From Escherichia phage vB_ EcoD_Phleasolo: DNA of 48,301 nt. This document shows positions 18,504 through 41,613 of the stretch, in pieces. The stretch lies in sequence record OL539447.1; one strand, given 5' to 3'. The notes under the pieces were generated by a model. The model worked only from the letters and a program-made list of their open reading frames with translations. It had not been told where the DNA came from and searched no databases. Position 1 is the first letter of the stretch. Each line of letters begins with the position of its first letter. The position numbers were made by a program, and so were the translations under genes.

Positions 18504-21500
18504 ATGGCACAAATGGTTAAACAAACAACGAGGTTATATGATATGGCCGATTTGCCAAAGATTTATGGAAGCAAGGGTGGTGGCAAGAAGCCACACACAC
18601 CTGTGGAGCAAGAAGATAACCTGGTTTCACTAAACAAGATTAAGGTGCTGCTGGCCGTTGCTGATGGTGAGGTTGATTCTAGCTTCTCACTTAAGGATGT
18701 TTACCTTGCTGACGTTCCAGTGCAGAACCAGGACAACTCATTCAACTATGAAGGTGTAACCGCTGAGTTTCGCCCAGGCACTCAATCTCAAGATTACATC
18801 GCCGGGCTAGACGGTGAGGCATCAGAGATTCAGGTTAGTCGTGAGATTAACAATGATACACCTTACATCATCGCAGTTAACAACAGTCAGCTTTCAGCAA
18901 TCCGAGTCAAGCTGTTCTGGCCTCGACTCGTTAAGCAAGAAGAGAATGGAGATTTAAATGGCACAACATGTGAATATGCAATCGATTTATCAGTTAATGG
19001 CTCAGCGTACACTGAATATACCAGAGGCGTGGCTAACGGTAAAACTACAACAGGTTACGACCGCAGTATCAGGGTTAACTTACCAGCCGAGTTTAGCAGC
19101 GCTCTTGTTCGTATTAGGAAGTTAACGCCAGACTCAACAAGCAGCACACTGGTTAACGGAATGCAGATTACAACCTATCAGGAAGTAATCGACGCTAAGT
19201 TCCGCTACCCTCTTACAGCGCTTGTTTACGTTGAGTTCAGCTCCGACCTATTCCCCAATGGCATCCCAACGATAGCTATTAAGAAAAAGTGGAAGCTTAT
19301 CCGCGTACCGACAAACTACAATCCAGAGACAAGGACTTATAGCGGCACATGGGATGGTACCTTTAAGATGGCGTGGTCTGACAACCCGGCCTGGGTTTTA
19401 TATGACCTTGTGGTTAGTCAGCGTTACGGATTAGATCAGCGAGAACTTGGTGTAGAGATTGATAAATGGGGTCTGTATGAAGCTGCGCAATTCTGTGACC
19501 AGATGGTTCCTGATGGTAAGGGTGGAATGGAGCCGCGATATACTTGCAACGTTGTAATTCAGCAGAAGGTTGAAGCATACCAGCTTATTCGTGACATCTG
19601 TTCTATATTCCGCGGTTTAACCTTCTATGATGGTGAGCAAATCGGGATTGTTGTAGACAGGCCGCGCCAGCCAAGTTACGTGTTCACCAATGATAACGTT
19701 GTTGATGGATTGTTTAACAGGACATTCTCTAGCGATAAGTCTCTTTACACGACTGCAAACGTTCAGTTTGATGACGTAGAGAATAACTATCAGCAAGATG
19801 TTGAACCAGTGTTCGACCTTGAAGCAACTCGCCGCTTTGGTTATAACCCTGTAGACCTGACCGCAATTGGATGCGTAAGGCGTAGTGAAGCTAACCGTCG
19901 AGGTCGCTGGTTGCTGAAAACAAACCTTCGAAGTGAAACGGTAACGTTCACAACTGGCCTCGAAGGGATGATTCCTATGATTGGTGATGTAATTGCTGTC
20001 AATGACCAGGCTTGGTCAAGCAACTACACATTGAACCTTTCGGGTCGAATCGTTGAGGCTACTGGTCTGCAGGTTTTTGTTCCTTTCGCTATTGATGCGG
20101 ACCCAGGCGACAGGATTTTAATCAACAAGCCCGATGGAAGCCCGGAGTACAGGACTATCGCTTCAGTATCTGCAGATAAGCTTACGCTTGAACTGAACAC
20201 AGCATTCAGTTTCACGCCGCAGCCGGATACGGTATTCGCAATCGATAAGCAGAATCTGGCGTTGCAGCAGTATGTGGTGACCGGGATTCAAAAAGCTAAC
20301 ACGGATGGAGAGGACTCATTCCAGTACAGCATCACAGCTGTTCAGTATGATCCTAACAAGTACGATGAGATTGACTACGGAGTAAACATCGATGACAGGC
20401 CAACAAGCATCGTTGACCCTGACAGGATTTTGCCACCGCAGAACATCACCGTTACTAGCTACAGCAAGGTAGTGCAGGGCTTAAGCGTTGAGACGATGGT
20501 TATTGGTTACGACAAAGTGCAGTATGCGAAAACATACAACGTACAATGGCGTAAGAATAACGGAAACTGGATTAACGTTCCTGAGACGGCTAACACTGAA
20601 GTTGATATTGAAGGTATCTACGCTGGCATTTACGACGTCAGGGTTCGTGCTGTAACTGACCAAAAATCAGTATCGGCATGGTCAGAAATCACAACTGTTA
20701 GCCTCACTGGCAAAATTGGAGAACCATCTGCGCCGCCTGTAATTACGGCTTCTGATGATGAGGTTTTCGGAATTAGGGTTAAGTGGGGCTTCCCTACTGA
20801 CTCAGCGGATACTGCGTACACCGAGCTTCAGCAGGTTCCTGATAATGGTGACGGTACATACAATCCAGAGAATGCATCACTGCTTACCCTGGTTCCTTAT
20901 CCTCAGTACGAATACTGGCACACAACTTTACCAGCAGGTAACGTGAGGTGGTACAGGGCGAGGATTATTGACAGGATAGGTAACGTATCTCCATGGACTG
21001 ATTTTGTCAGGGGTATGGCATCTGATGATGTAAGTGCAATCATTGGCGACATCAAGGTTGATATCGAAAACTCTGATGGTTACAAGTATCTTCTCCAGAA
21101 CGCCATTGATGCAAATACTGACATCCAGAACCAGGCCGAAGCAATAATTGAGAACGCATTAGCAAACGATACTGACGTGCGCGTTATGAAGCGCGAGAAT
21201 GGAGCAAGGAAGGCTGAATATCGCCAGGCTGTTAGTTTGATTGCTGATGAAACTCAGGCGCGTGTAAATGCTCTCACAGAACTTAAAGCGCAGATTGATG
21301 ATGAGATTGTTGGTCAGATTACGACAATTGAAACTGCTTTAGCTACAGAGACCGAGGCAAGGGCTACTGCTGATACCGCTCTAAGCGCAAGGCTTGGTGA
21401 TAACGAGGCGGCTTTGAATCAGAAGCTTGACTCTTACGCCACGGTCGAAGGCGTTGGTGTTCAGTACGGCGTTAAGCTAGGTCTGAAGTACAATGGAGTT

Positions 21501-21899
21501 GAGTATGGCGCTGGCATGAGCATGGAGTTAACTGGTAGTGGTGGAAATGTTCGCAGTCAGTTCATTTTCGACGCCAACAGATTTGCAATCAGTAACGGCA
21601 TTAGTTCTGGTTCCGGTCAGTGGTCACTGCCTTTTGTTGTCGATAATAACCAGGTTTTCATTCAAAGCGCTGTGATACAGGACGGTTCAATCACTAACGC
21701 GAAGATTGGAGACGCAATTCAGTCTAACAACTTTGTAGCAAACTCTGTTGGCTGGAGGCTTGATAAGGCTGGAACTTTCGAAAATAACGGTTCTACGCCT
21801 GGCGAGGGTAAAATGAAGCAAACTAACCAGACAATTTCGGTTGCTGATGCTAACGGAAGGCTTCGTGTTCAGATTGGCCGTTTGACTGGAGTTTACTAA
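18504..21899 (+). CDS. central tail fibre / host specificity protein (lambda J-like)
   Basis: 1131 aa, largest structural gene, last of the M-L-K-I-J block. Confidence 0.8.
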   Translation: MAQMVKQTTRLYDMADLPKIYGSKGGGKKPHTPVEQEDNLVSLNKIKVLLAVADGEVDSSFSLKDVYLADVPVQNQDNSFNYEGVTAEFRPGTQSQDYIAGLDGEASEIQVSREINNDTPYIIAVNNSQLSAIRVKLFWPRLVKQEENGDLNGTTCEYAIDLSVNGSAYTEYTRGVANGKTTTGYDRSIRVNLPAEFSSALVRIRKLTPDSTSSTLVNGMQITTYQEVIDAKFRYPLTALVYVEFSSDLFPNGIPTIAIKKKWKLIRVPTNYNPETRTYSGTWDGTFKMAWSDNPAWVLYDLVVSQRYGLDQRELGVEIDKWGLYEAAQFCDQMVPDGKGGMEPRYTCNVVIQQKVEAYQLIRDICSIFRGLTFYDGEQIGIVVDRPRQPSYVFTNDNVVDGLFNRTFSSDKSLYTTANVQFDDVENNYQQDVEPVFDLEATRRFGYNPVDLTAIGCVRRSEANRRGRWLLKTNLRSETVTFTTGLEGMIPMIGDVIAVNDQAWSSNYTLNLSGRIVEATGLQVFVPFAIDADPGDRILINKPDGSPEYRTIASVSADKLTLELNTAFSFTPQPDTVFAIDKQNLALQQYVVTGIQKANTDGEDSFQYSITAVQYDPNKYDEIDYGVNIDDRPTSIVDPDRILPPQNITVTSYSKVVQGLSVETMVIGYDKVQYAKTYNVQWRKNNGNWINVPETANTEVDIEGIYAGIYDVRVRAVTDQKSVSAWSEITTVSLTGKIGEPSAPPVITASDDEVFGIRVKWGFPTDSADTAYTELQQVPDNGDGTYNPENASLLTLVPYPQYEYWHTTLPAGNVRWYRARIIDRIGNVSPWTDFVRGMASDDVSAIIGDIKVDIENSDGYKYLLQNAIDANTDIQNQAEAIIENALANDTDVRVMKRENGARKAEYRQAVSLIADETQARVNALTELKAQIDDEIVGQITTIETALATETEARATADTALSARLGDNEAALNQKLDSYATVEGVGVQYGVKLGLKYNGVEYGAGMSMELTGSGGNVRSQFIFDANRFAISNGISSGSGQWSLPFVVDNNQVFIQSAVIQDGSITNAKIGDAIQSNNFVANSVGWRLDKAGTFENNGSTPGEGKMKQTNQTISVADANGRLRVQIGRLTGVY

Positions 21900-21946
21900 C
21901 TGATAGAATGGGCAAATGGAATTGCCCTTATCAACAGGAGGAATTT

Positions 21947-22255
21947 ATGGCTGAGTATGGGATTGCTACATATGATGCAAATGGTAATTACAATAACTAT
22001 GGGATTAAGCCAGTTACGGTTGTTGGCTTTGATTTCCTTTCCGCTGGCAATAATTCTTACTCGTTTTCTTACTCAATACCAGAAGGCACAAAGGTTGGAT
22101 TCACTATTAGTCTGGATGATGGGGCGATATCTGGACCAGCAAGGAGAATAGTGGCAAGTGGGAACACAATAACGATAACACCAACATCAACACCAGGACC
22201 TGGTGTTTACCCATCATCAAATTGCTACCTCATAGCTTATCTGGAGAATCAATAA
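21947..22255 (+). CDS. hypothetical protein (paralog A, downstream of the J-like gene)
   Basis: Start at the ATG after AGGAGG; N-terminus MAEYGIATYDANGNYNNYG resembles the next gene's MADYGAFIDVNGNPF. Confidence 0.4.
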   Translation: MAEYGIATYDANGNYNNYGIKPVTVVGFDFLSAGNNSYSFSYSIPEGTKVGFTISLDDGAISGPARRIVASGNTITITPTSTPGPGVYPSSNCYLIAYLENQ

Positions 22256-22947
22256 TGGCTGATTACGGAGCTTTTATAGATGTAAATGGAAATCCATTCA
22301 TAACGCCACTATCAACACCATTCGCACTTTACTCAAAAGGAACAATCGCATCAGGTAATGTTAACAACACCCAGTATGCTGATAGATATGTTGACATTCC
22401 TCTCAATGTTCCAGTGATAGCTTTTTGCAAAACGACAAACACAAACAATGGTACAGCTTTGTCAGCATTCACATTTAGGGAGGGATCCAACATTGGAAAG
22501 ATCTACTTTCAGGGTGTTAATCCAGCAAATCAGGCGTTTGTTATGACGTACTACATATTTGCGATATTCCCACAGACTCTACCTGATTGGGGTATGGCTA
22601 TATGGGATGCGCAGGGTAAATTGATACTTACAAATGAAACAAAGGTTCTTAGCGACCTAGCAACAATTGGCACGCCAGGTTATCAATCTGGTGGTTTAAA
22701 TATAGACGTAACATTGCAAGGAAGTTGGGCCGTGGTTCCAACAACCCTGGGGAATAGTCAGATACAAATAGGAACGCTACCAACTGGTCAGCCAGTTATA
22801 ACAAATGCGACAGCTGGAACATCCTGCAGGTACAACGGAGTGCAGACAAGAATAAACGCGCAGTCAACACGTGGCTCTGGAAATGTGTTAAGCACAACAA
22901 ATAACGGAAATGTAATAACAGCAATTAACACATCAGCATACGACTAA
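22255..22947 (+). CDS. hypothetical protein (paralog B, possible distal tail/receptor-related)
   Basis: 230 aa from ATG 22255 (TAATG overlap with the previous gene); Thr/Asn/Gly-rich. Confidence 0.4.
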   Translation: MADYGAFIDVNGNPFITPLSTPFALYSKGTIASGNVNNTQYADRYVDIPLNVPVIAFCKTTNTNNGTALSAFTFREGSNIGKIYFQGVNPANQAFVMTYYIFAIFPQTLPDWGMAIWDAQGKLILTNETKVLSDLATIGTPGYQSGGLNIDVTLQGSWAVVPTTLGNSQIQIGTLPTGQPVITNATAGTSCRYNGVQTRINAQSTRGSGNVLSTTNNGNVITAINTSAYD

Positions 22948-22967
22948 GCCCCTTTCGGGGCTTTTTC
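22947..22967. terminator. bidirectional terminator between convergent genes
   Basis: AGCCCC-TTTC-GGGGCT hairpin followed by T run. Confidence 0.6.
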
Positions 22968-22971
22968 TTTA

Positions 22972-23193
22972 TCAACCTCCACAATCGTGGTCTTTAAAAT
23001 TCCGCTCAGAGACGTACTGAAACGAGAATGGATATCCGGCCCTAAGTAAAAACTCCTCACCGCGCTTCTGCGTGCCAAAAACATAAACAGAGTAACTCAT
23101 TCCGCTTGACTCATAAATCGCCGTACAAGTGCGCTCCGGCATCGTAGAGCACCCGCCTAACGTCATTGCTGCGATAACGATTAATTTTTTCAT
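22972..23193 (-). CDS. cor: Cor/Llp-like superinfection-exclusion lipoprotein
   Basis: From the ATG at 23193: MKKLIVIAAMTLGGC... signal peptide with lipobox; 73 aa, Cys-rich; on the opposite strand right after the tail fibre genes; SD AAGGTG upstream. Confidence 0.55.
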   Translation of the reverse strand: MKKLIVIAAMTLGGCSTMPERTCTAIYESSGMSYSVYVFGTQKRGEEFLLRAGYPFSFQYVSERNFKDHDCGG

Positions 23194-23203
23194 CTCATTC
23201 ACC

Positions 23204-23308
23204 TTAGAAACCGTTAAAGTTTGAAGCCAGCAGCAGAACCCAAACGAAGAAGCTGGTAGTTGCTACGCCGAAGATTGCAGAGATTAAGTTAGTGGTTAAG
23301 TTAGTCAT
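23204..23308 (-). CDS. small hydrophobic peptide (34 aa), first gene of the cor-like operon
   Basis: MTNLTTNLISAIFGVATTSFFVWVLLLASNFNGF; SD AAGGA 7 nt upstream; below the ORF-track size cutoff. Confidence 0.3.
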   Translation of the reverse strand: MTNLTTNLISAIFGVATTSFFVWVLLLASNFNGF

Positions 23309-23896
23309 TTTGTATTCCTTAGTAAGTATGTTTCGTTTCGATGGAGTAACTATAGCAAAGGCTTCAGCGGTAGTCTTTAGCAAATCGTGCTATTTGATAT
23401 ACGCGTAACCGATGTAACTCGATGTATACAATCTCATCCGCGGAAAATTGTATACGCTTTTTTACGCGCAGATACGCATTAGTTACATTTATAAATCCTT
23501 ATATAATAAGGTTTTAGAGTAGTATTATTATTATATATATTACTATGTATATCTTGTAACTACTCTCTATAGCTATGTTGGTATGTTTTTCTAAAAGACT
23601 ATGTTTGATTTCCTGTTAAGGAGGAAATGCATATAGATATAGATAGGGTGCAAAATTGGTGGATACATTGGTTACAAGAGTTACATTCAGCATCCATGCG
23701 GCCTAGAGACTAGCAAGGCGTATTTAGGTGCGTTTTACACCGATATACAAAATAGCACGATTAATCAAAACGGCTGCTTCTTGATTGGGTATAGTGCACT
23801 CATCGGCAGCAATGGTGCTGCGTCTATCTACCAAAAAATGGTAGATACAAATGAAATAGCTCCTCAACTTGAGGAGCAAGGATAAGAGAGAAGATA

Positions 23897-24523
23897 ATGA
23901 ACTTAATCAATACCAAGAAAGAAATGACCATGACGACAACTGAGATTGCTAAGATTGTTGGTCAGCGACACGATAACTTAATGAATGATGTTAAATCAAT
24001 GTACCTTGAGTTGTATGGTGAAAATCATTCTCCTGAGATTCAGGAGATTAAAATTCACAACAACAGAAGCCAAAAAATTGCAATTCTTGATAAAAAACAC
24101 ACACTATGCCTTGCTGCAAAGTACAGCGCAAAGGTTAGAATGAACATGATCGAGAAGATTGAGAGCCTTGAGCAGGAAAACAAATTACTGAAAGAGCATA
24201 TGGCTAAGATGGTTTCAATTGACGAGATCAAAGTTTATAAGATAGAAGCTGCGTCAGCAAAAGCTGCACAGCACAGAGCTGAAGATAACTATTACGCAAT
24301 TGAGAAGTTCATGTTTAAGAACATGGATAAGTGCGGAAATCCTGCAGAACTTGATGAGCAATACTTCGATGTTAAATTCGAGTCAAATCGTTACCATGAC
24401 TCTCAAGAGGTTGTTTACAAGTACCAGGCCCAGCTTGAGGTTGCTTGCGAGAAGTTAAAGGCCAAAGATGAGCTGATTGCTAATCTGGTAGACAAGAATA
24501 GCGAGATTCTTAAGTTGAAATGA
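23897..24523 (+). CDS. Rha-family phage regulatory protein (antirepressor-like)
   Basis: N-terminal TTTEIAKIVGQRHDNLMNDVKSM resembles the Rha-domain signature (...G K.H.NVLRDI...); first gene of the rightward early unit. Confidence 0.5.
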   Translation: MNLINTKKEMTMTTTEIAKIVGQRHDNLMNDVKSMYLELYGENHSPEIQEIKIHNNRSQKIAILDKKHTLCLAAKYSAKVRMNMIEKIESLEQENKLLKEHMAKMVSIDEIKVYKIEAASAKAAQHRAEDNYYAIEKFMFKNMDKCGNPAELDEQYFDVKFESNRYHDSQEVVYKYQAQLEVACEKLKAKDELIANLVDKNSEILKLK

Positions 24524-34076: not shown

Positions 34077-34400
34077 ATGAAAAAGTTAATTATCGCAACT
34101 ATCCTGATGGCGGCAGCAAGTGTTAATGCAGACGCGAAAGCTAACAACTGTCATGACATCGTTCAGTACGCTTACAACCTTGCAGTTAACGAATGGGGCG
34201 CTAACAAAACTGATGTGGTTAATGCTAAAACTGTCAGTCTCTACCTGGATACATGTGAAATTGCTATCAAATCACGAGGCACTTACACTAAAGATGAACT
34301 TACAGCTAAGTATGATTCAGTAAAAACAAGCACTAAATCAGAGATGGATGTTCAGGATATTGTAATCCTTGTATCTAGAATCTCTTACGATAAGGCATAA
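34077..34400 (+). CDS. secreted/periplasmic hypothetical protein (signal peptide)
   Basis: MKKLIIATILMAAASVNA|DAK signal peptide; start moved to ATG 34077. Confidence 0.45.
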   Translation: MKKLIIATILMAAASVNADAKANNCHDIVQYAYNLAVNEWGANKTDVVNAKTVSLYLDTCEIAIKSRGTYTKDELTAKYDSVKTSTKSEMDVQDIVILVSRISYDKA

Positions 34401-35285: not shown

Positions 35286-35539
35286 ATTTACCTGGACTTG
35301 ATTTTGATGAGAGTAAGTATCCAGTTGTCTTTTTTGGTGAGAAGCCTTACCGGAAGATCCCTTTTGCTGATTGGATTCCACCAGACTATCTTGATGTGCT
35401 GGTTCAGATTGAAGTTGGTAAGGCTGAACTCATGTATTACTCACCAGGCTGCAACATGATGATGCCTAGTGAATACTCTCCGGCAATAGCCGCGCTTGAA
35501 ACTGAGTTTCTTGATTACTGGCTAAAAGAAGTTAAATAG
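35282..35539 (+). CDS. hypothetical protein
   Basis: 85-aa ORF; its TAG stop is the first triplet of a palindromic motif copy. Confidence 0.4.
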   Translation: MNLPGLDFDESKYPVVFFGEKPYRKIPFADWIPPDYLDVLVQIEVGKAELMYYSPGCNMMMPSEYSPAIAALETEFLDYWLKEVK

Positions 35540-37164: not shown

Positions 37165-37350
37165 ATGGCTAAGTTCACACAATCAGATGCACAAATCGAA
37201 GTTAAAGATGTTGGTTTTGGTAAGGCATTCAAGATTGCGCAGGCGTACGGGTCTAGCGAAGAAGATGTGAAAGTTGACACTATTAACCTTACTGCTAAGA
37301 ATGCACGTGAGATCGCTTATGCAATCCTTGCAGCACTTGGAGAAAAATGA
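37165..37350 (+). CDS. hypothetical protein
   Basis: 61-aa ORF with RBS GAGAGGA. Confidence 0.4.
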   Translation: MAKFTQSDAQIEVKDVGFGKAFKIAQAYGSSEEDVKVDTINLTAKNAREIAYAILAALGEK

Positions 37351-37351
37351 A

Positions 37352-37525
37352 ATGACTAAATTATTTTGCGTAATCAACAAATCAAAAACTCTGCCGTTCA
37401 CTGTAAACAATCCGTATAGCGCTGAGTATCAGGGTGAAGGAAACTACAAGATTTATGGCGATGACATGACATGGATTTTTGCGCCAATCGATGGAGCTTT
37501 GTTGGAATTCATTATCGCAGACTAA
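37352..37525 (+). CDS. hypothetical protein
   Basis: 57 aa from ATG 37352, coupled to the upstream stop. Confidence 0.35.
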   Translation: MTKLFCVINKSKTLPFTVNNPYSAEYQGEGNYKIYGDDMTWIFAPIDGALLEFIIAD

Positions 37526-41454: not shown

Positions 41455-41613
41455 TTAGTGCTATTTCTTTGCTGCTTTTGCAATTGCTTTCTGAACAATG
41501 TCGAAACTCTCAATCAAATCTTCTTTAAAGTAGTCACCAACAGGCCAGCCCTTGCCGCTGTACTTTGCTATGGTTTCTAGATCGTAATAGTTCAAATCAG
41601 ATGGCTTAAGCAT
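41455..41613 (-). CDS. small hypothetical protein (52 aa)
   Basis: ATG overlaps the upstream stop (TAAATG); below the ORF-track cutoff. Confidence 0.3.

Follow-up and report, generated by a model that had tools for sequence, protein, structure and literature searches.

We consider it likely that a leftward gene pair of the T1-like phage vB_ EcoD_Phleasolo forms the superinfection-exclusion arm of an FhuA-type receptor module, in which the exclusion lipoprotein Cor is encoded behind a 34-aa peptide that acts as an independent accessory microprotein. The whole stretch of 48,301 nucleotides that was analysed (OL539447.1) is called the window here.

Gene layout and putative promoter

The pair lies on the minus strand, with a 34-aa uncharged hydrophobic ORF (23308-23204) followed by a 73-aa lipoprotein ORF (23193-22972). 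These coordinates and strands agree with the initial annotation, which had described a leftward two-gene unit directly after the tail-tip genes and on the opposite strand. The elements of the locus are as follows.

18504-21899, plus strand: gpJ-like tail-tip gene, preceding two small tail-tip genes
21908-22255, plus strand: small tail-tip gene, 115 aa
22255-22947, plus strand: small tail-tip gene, 230 aa
22946-22963, no strand assigned: GC-rich hairpin AAGCCCC-TTTC-GGGGCTT between the convergent stops, from a terminator scan
22972-23193, minus strand: cor, 73-aa prolipoprotein, stop included (22974-22972); product MKKLIVIAAMTLGGCSTMPERTC...DHDCGG
23200-23205, minus strand: AAGGTG, Shine-Dalgarno sequence for cor, which overlaps the stop codon of the peptide gene
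23204-23308, minus strand: peptide gene, 34 aa, stop included (TAA at 23206-23204); product MTNLTTNLISAIFGVATTSFFVWVLLLASNFNGF
23316-23320, minus strand: AAGGA, Shine-Dalgarno sequence for the peptide, 7 nt upstream of its ATG; kept in phages ZL19 and AHP24
23330-23344, minus strand: leader CCATCGAAACGAAAC, at the putative transcript start; conserved in relatives
23349-23357, minus strand: extended -10-like element TGcTATAGT, with the hexamer TATAGT at 23354-23349; putative promoter
23376-23395, minus strand: palindromic element AAATAGCACGATTTGCTAAA (TAGCA-N5-TGCTA), a candidate activator site or operator

The peptide ORF runs from an ATG at 23308 to its stop at 23206-23204 and is preceded by the AAGGA (23320-23316) that had been assigned to it as a Shine-Dalgarno sequence. 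The 10-nt gap reported between the two genes is exact (GGTGAATGAG, from the peptide stop to the ATG at 23193), and across all relatives examined the gap from the peptide to the next gene is 0 to 11 nt. The overlap of AAGGTG with the peptide stop codon suggests that translation of cor is coupled to that of the peptide.

The order of gpJ-like gene, 115-aa gene, 230-aa gene and convergent cor is the arrangement of T1, where cor likewise follows two small tail-tip genes downstream of gpJ and shares a terminator with them; T1 ORF31 is the counterpart of the 230-aa protein, at 73% identity. The hairpin at 22946-22963 has a T-run on the plus strand and, towards cor, an A-run, and is thus probably a bidirectional terminator common to the cor unit and the tail-tip genes, at which the cor transcript would end. 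In T1, a rho-independent terminator is annotated at the corresponding position. An Rfam search for structured or known RNAs in the leader gave only a sub-threshold match, on the terminator hairpin.

The promoter architecture of palindrome, -10 element and leader had been described as one that recurs in this genome, and the recurrence is clear: AAATAGCACGAATTGCTAAA occurs 9 times in the window with at most 3 mismatches and 0 times in 100 shuffles. Together with a diverged copy at 35534 this makes 10 copies, which start at 2180(+), 23395(-), 26191(+), 33992(+), 35534(+), 37087(+), 41466(-), 43923(+), 45575(+) and 46451(+). The spacing from element to hexamer is 20 to 21 nt in nine of the ten, and the spacer frequently forms a short GC hairpin whose loop is AGGA or GGGA. 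In eight copies the series is complete, running from a TATAGT-like hexamer through a leader of the CATCGAAAC type (looser in several) and a Shine-Dalgarno sequence to a gene on the same strand. Two are incomplete: at 41466 the -10 element and leader are missing, and at 35534 there is no clear first gene. The sequence CCATCGAAAC was observed 11 times with at most 1 mismatch, against 2.5 expected, and five of these occurrences fall just after the promoter element.

A scan for the sigma-70 consensus left the promoter of the cor unit uncalled because there is no -35 element at canonical spacing. TTGCTA within the palindrome was considered as a -35 element and rejected, since the spacer would be 22 to 23 nt. 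The centre of the palindrome lies about 42 nt upstream of the putative transcription start; this position, which is typical of activator-dependent promoters, and the missing canonical -35 element suggest a promoter of that kind. The promoter itself is predicted from the recurrence of the motif. No paper was retrieved in a literature search on the motif string. Farther upstream, a perfect 9-bp inverted repeat (GTATACAAT-N14-ATTGTATAC, 23424-23455) lies in the 590 bp that separate the cor unit from the divergent gene for a Rha-family regulator (23897-24523). Its flanks are conserved in JulesPiccard, RobRod40 and AHP24, and it is a possible operator.

In each genus and context examined, the peptide gene stands behind the same promoter and leader as here. 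This promoter type is present in T1-like phages of Klebsiella, Enterobacter and Pantoea and is absent upstream of T1 cor. At equivalent positions the promoter-proximal gene varies among relatives, so that the slot looks like an exchange place for small accessory genes. One such occupant is the Rtp45-type lipoprotein of Rtp and Rogue1-like phages; Rtp45 is an experimentally characterised periplasmic exclusion lipoprotein that blocks the phage's own receptor LptD (PMC12685063). The Rtp45-type gene has the same genomic slot, and the promoter, leader and Shine-Dalgarno sequence before it closely resemble those of the cor unit, whereas its product belongs to an unrelated family (PHROG 4281), its own ATG stands at the position of the peptide's ATG with no peptide present, and a receptor-binding gene comes next on the same strand (AHP24 L007 / Rogue1 L008, 2892-4099). 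In megablast comparisons with Rogue1-type phages, identity of 93 to 97% extends through the upstream region and ends 10 nt past the start codon, which places the left junction of the cassette swap at the start codon.

The lipoprotein and its likely receptor

The 73-aa product carries the classic lipobox attributed to it, with lysines at positions 2 and 3 and TLGG immediately before Cys15 (PROSITE-type pattern matched). The predicted signal sequence, MKKLIVIAAMTLGG, is followed by the Cys15 codon at 23151-23149 and a Ser at +2, and predicted lipidation at Cys15 would leave a mature protein of 59 aa. The "several" cysteines mentioned in the initial annotation number three, C15, C23 and C71. Cys23 and Cys71, both in the mature part, are invariant in 22 close homologues and are placed like the Cys11-Cys58 disulphide of T5 Llp (PMC9586334), predicting a bond between them.

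The assignment as Cor/Llp-like stands for Cor by family match and for Llp by predicted fold, but not for Llp by sequence. The protein matches the NCBIfam equivalog NF047972 ("phage exclusion lipoprotein Cor") over residues 1-71 with 46.1 bits against a cut-off of 31, and PHROG 1119 over residues 1-72 with an E value of 3.3e-27. It is 74% identical to T1 Cor, and homologues were found in 230 phage records, from T1-like phages down to lambdoid Cor at about 30% identity. It shares with Cor of T1, phi80, N15 and lambdoid phages the full-length match, size, lipobox and two further cysteines; these features, with the sorting residue and the tail-tip neighbourhood, place it in the Cor family.

An AlphaFold2 model of Cor (mean pLDDT of 80, about 90 over the folded part) forms a small beta-barrel. 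Among the Foldseek matches, T5 Llp (8A60 chain B) had the best length-normalised TM-scores (0.54 and 0.62), with an E value of 0.12, which is not significant alone, and the structure-based alignment has 22 to 24% identity. The barrel is a generic fold that also resembles Tudor and SH3 domains. A phmmer search with Cor against all PDB chains, including Llp (8A60, 7QJF), returned no match at E values up to 10, and a Pfam search matched neither Cor nor the peptide. Because similarity to the PDB sequences is undetectable, the link to Llp runs through the predicted fold: on the model Cor is Llp-like in fold, and it is not a member of the Llp family at the sequence level. T5 Llp also differs in its phage family and receptor-binding protein, so that its mechanism can be carried over to Cor by analogy only.

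Llp binds the FhuA plug from the periplasm, upon which the extracellular loops EL7 and EL8 fold inward and cover the site where the phage binds, and the same authors judge that Cor proteins likely act likewise, with the disulphide in common (PMC9586334). AlphaFold3 models of T1-type Cor with FhuA led to the same conclusion in a 2026 paper (PMC13164509). In Drexlerviridae, receptor specificity is tracked by the locus downstream of gpJ (PMC8594841; bioRxiv 10.64898/2026.04.02.716166; PMC13164509), and among BASEL phages the cor cassette correlates with FhuA use (PMC13164509). A 2023 paper on an FhuA coliphage contains neither Cor nor Llp as whole words. Since a T1-like tail-tip protein and a cor cassette go with FhuA use, FhuA is, judging from the genes present, the likely receptor of the phage and the likely target of its Cor.

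As the record of the closest deposited genome names a Klebsiella host, the physiological target could be a Klebsiella FhuA orthologue or something else. We give a very small chance to the idea that the lipoprotein, despite its Cor family, blocks a receptor other than FhuA, for example a TonB-dependent transporter of Klebsiella or Serratia. The deposition of near-identical genomes under three host labels (Klebsiella, E. coli and Serratia) would fit it, as would the Cor-like proteins carried by BtuB-dependent phages (PMC13164509). Against it stand the correlation between the cassette and FhuA use in the BASEL phages (PMC13164509) and the dependence of T1 on FhuA, T1 being the phage whose Cor and tail-tip protein are 74% and 73% identical to those described here. 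FhuA is moreover conserved in enterobacteria.

The records that share the locus differ in their host labels. The locus is 100% identical to that of Klebsiella phage vB_KpnD_Opt-79, Escherichia phage Opt-719 and Sadiya, the Sadiya record being assigned to Drexlerviridae, Rogunavirinae. OL539453, OL539451 and OL539467 have lengths of 48,301 to 48,303 bp and are identical over the 801-bp stretch searched; their host labels are Klebsiella pneumoniae, Escherichia coli and Serratia marcescens. Three host genera for nearly the same genome point either to a wide host range or to imprecise host labels.

The 34-aa peptide as a gene and a family

In the identical genomes the 73-aa gene is annotated as a superinfection exclusion protein, and Cor is in this respect already known. 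The small ORF is annotated there from a longer TTG start (59 aa) as a "hypothetical protein," or, in Sadiya, as a "putative lipoprotein." The latter label is wrong, as the peptide has no Cys. Three points led to rejection of the 59-aa ORF (23204-23383, minus strand): it contains the -10 element, its upstream in-frame part shows no conservation at the protein level, and the 34-aa ORF has a conserved ATG and Shine-Dalgarno sequence. Among the GenBank records examined, about half lack the peptide gene or give it a wrong start, and roughly half of the phage records in which it is present leave it unannotated.

The peptide is hydrophobic, as the initial annotation had described it, with 0 charged residues, a GRAVY of 1.19 and a hydropathy peak at residues 8-28. 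Conservation of the ORF in relatives, which had been put forward as a check, was borne out. Pairwise codon comparison of seven peptide genes gave a dN/dS of 0.2 to 0.6 in frame, with pS well above pN, whereas in the other two frames pN was similar to or above pS, the ratio was about 1, and 3 to 5 stops interrupted the reading. The 34-aa ORF is a real gene under purifying selection.

A short ORF in this position could in principle be a mere translated leader that governs cor translation, its amino acids being immaterial. The ORF is indeed promoter-proximal and very short, its stop overlaps the cor Shine-Dalgarno sequence, and some of the upstream nucleotide conservation is due to the promoter and leader rather than to the ORF. 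We nevertheless regard this reading as highly improbable: synonymous changes far exceed non-synonymous ones solely in the peptide frame, length and C-terminal motif persist where identity has fallen to 44% and synonymous divergence is saturated, and the ORF precedes unlike genes, including those for a 242-aa methyltransferase and an SH3-like protein.

Homologues of 34 to 38 aa were found in 143 phage records. A search of a 5.8-billion-protein collection, with the 34-aa alignment plus 11 upstream codons as query, gave 27 clusters at 90% identity, and the long contigs among them measure about 44 to 52 kb, as T1-like phage genomes do. An exhaustive profile search of 1.84 billion representatives gave 19 clusters at 50% identity, with no bacterial protein family among the peptide matches. 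All but one are small proteins of the peptide's own size and kind; the exception, the 159-aa protein P0059, was set aside as a false positive, a repeat protein matched on a hydrophobic stretch. The family is apparently confined to T1-like phages. Searches of the peptide against Pfam, PHROGs, NCBIfam and PADLOC placed it in no family and gave at most chance-level matches (E values of at least 0.04), and eight family members likewise had only chance-level matches in PHROGs.

The consensus of the family is M-x-N-...-G-x-A-V-T-G-F-F-V-W-V-L-x-L-A-S-N-F-N-G-F. In the 24 closer members aligned, G14, T18, W23, F31, G33 and F34 are invariant; in distant clusters W23 varies, the C-terminal residue is F or W, and the tail reads LA(S/G)NFxG(F/W). 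The C-terminal tail is LASNFNGF in this phage, and family length and motif are kept down to 44% identity. Basic residues, when present in the family, are mainly N-terminal, which weakly suggests an N-in/C-out topology with the conserved tail LA(S/G)NFxGF in the periplasm. The peptide is like other small single-pass membrane proteins in its size, its one hydrophobic helix and its promoter-proximal position behind a good Shine-Dalgarno sequence (predicting high expression), and unlike them it falls outside every family described in Pfam, PHROGs, NCBIfam and PADLOC.

Genomic contexts and possible roles of the peptide

A joint search for the peptide and Cor found 268 phage records, and the two are adjacent in only 15. 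In this phage and the 14 other records of that kind, cor is second in its unit, behind the peptide and a family-specific promoter. In about 200 phage records, including that of T1, no peptide match adjoins cor; the region upstream of T1 cor is different and has neither such an ORF immediately upstream nor the promoter motif. The sertoctaviruses BrunoManser and SRT8 carry cor and the peptide at separate sites, the peptide preceding an SH3-like/DUF7244 gene and a holin-endolysin-spanin cassette. The lysis-proximal arrangement recurs in Enterobacter phage Ec_L1, Pantoea phage AAS23 and a metagenomic contig. Matches to the peptide come from about 110 Klebsiella phage records, those to Cor from only 2 to 3 Klebsiella records. 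The one Webervirus context examined, that of Sanco, has the peptide gene between a VRR-NUC gene and dam.

In phage ZL19 (L009, 2001-2292), the peptide is 82% identical and is followed after 1 nt by a different lipoprotein of 61 aa. The signal peptide of that lipoprotein is nearly that of Cor, its mature part differs, and it matches PHROG 1119 weakly (E value of 7e-5); the breakpoint of the ZL19-type recombination apparently falls within the signal peptide. The ZL19 cassette adjoins a different pair of tail-tip genes, and its relative phiA2-1 was isolated on a delta-fhuA host.

Two slots that hold the peptide elsewhere have other occupants in the window. The Sertoctavirus slot is occupied by a 61-aa gene (37165-37350; PHROG 7411), which is followed, in a plus-strand segment ending at 37525, by a gene for a small protein resembling SH3-like/DUF7244 proteins (PHROG 4788). 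The slot of Sanco, the first after the promoter behind the VRR-NUC gene, holds a gene for a 107-aa protein (34077-34400, plus strand) with a cleavable-looking signal peptide (MKKLIIATILMAAASVNA) and a weak PHROG match (E value of 0.009).

The distribution of the peptide gives no sign of a partnership specific to Cor, and the peptide is probably not a dedicated Cor partner. A partner of exclusion lipoproteins could aid their export or sorting, or could block FhuA from the inner membrane on the TonB-ExbBD side. Tight coupling would suit such a role, with the 10-nt gap here and gaps of 1 to 10 nt in relatives, as would the peptide-cor pair kept in 15 phage records and the occurrence of two lineages in which a lipoprotein with nearly the same signal peptide comes next (Cor and the 61-aa protein of ZL19). 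We still find it very unlikely in view of the roughly 200 records in which cor stands without an adjacent peptide, T1 included, the separate sites in sertoctaviruses, and the roughly 110 Klebsiella phage records with the peptide and almost no match to Cor. Further, cor of N15, phi80 and lambdoid phages confers resistance to FhuA phages when cloned alone. Because the peptide is tightly coupled before an exclusion-type lipoprotein in two lineages, there is a small chance of a helper role for the lipoproteins in the Cor-adjacent and ZL19 lineages. The contexts upstream of the SH3-like/DUF7244 gene and lysis cassette, found in Sertoctavirus, Eclunavirus, Sauletekiovirus and the metagenomic contig, would instead fit a lysis-timing factor, antiholin-like or a modulator of the holin, with adjacency to cor being incidental. 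This seems quite unlikely to us: no second copy of the peptide was found in the window, and the single copy lies about 14 kb from the lysis-proximal slot, which an unrelated gene holds. In addition, the Sanco peptide precedes dam, and many Drexlerviridae have the same lysis cassette without the peptide. Nor does the peptide look like a holin or antiholin, as it is apart from the lysis genes here, is free of charged residues and lacks the charged C-terminal tail of the holin type.

Our best guess, held with low confidence, is that the peptide acts on a host component of the inner membrane, in entry exclusion or in host takeover. A narrower version, in which it is a receptor-independent membrane effector of T1-like phages that blocks DNA entry at the inner membrane or de-energises TonB-ExbBD, is in our judgement unlikely. 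It is compatible with purifying selection, with presence as an accessory gene in some genera, with the promoter-proximal position and with the two occurrences before exclusion lipoproteins. If the peptide did interfere with TonB-ExbBD, every TonB-dependent receptor would become useless to incoming phages, and a receptor-independent effector would move between operons as a promoter-plus-first-gene module.

We propose that the peptide is an independent accessory microprotein. A single leftward transcript would start near 23342, from a promoter type of which the window has about ten copies, end at the hairpin beyond cor, and yield both the peptide and Cor, the latter probably translated by coupling to the former. 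Cor would be exported, lipidated at Cys15 and, given Ser at +2, sorted to the inner face of the outer membrane, where by analogy with Llp it may act allosterically to lock FhuA in a state of no use to FhuA-dependent phages. An infected cell would thereby be protected from such phages, and progeny would be kept off debris. The peptide would insert in the inner membrane and act independently of Cor, as an occupant of the promoter-proximal slot that is shuffled between operons.

The family, position and mechanism of Cor are published; the new point is a compact, unnamed microprotein family in T1-like phages that is often left unannotated. Its changing neighbours raise the possibility that the conserved promoter and leader serve as a recombination handle, through which the first gene and the receptor/exclusion cassette may be swapped. 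Swapping at such a handle would matter for the genome-based prediction of receptor use and exclusion spectra in these phages.
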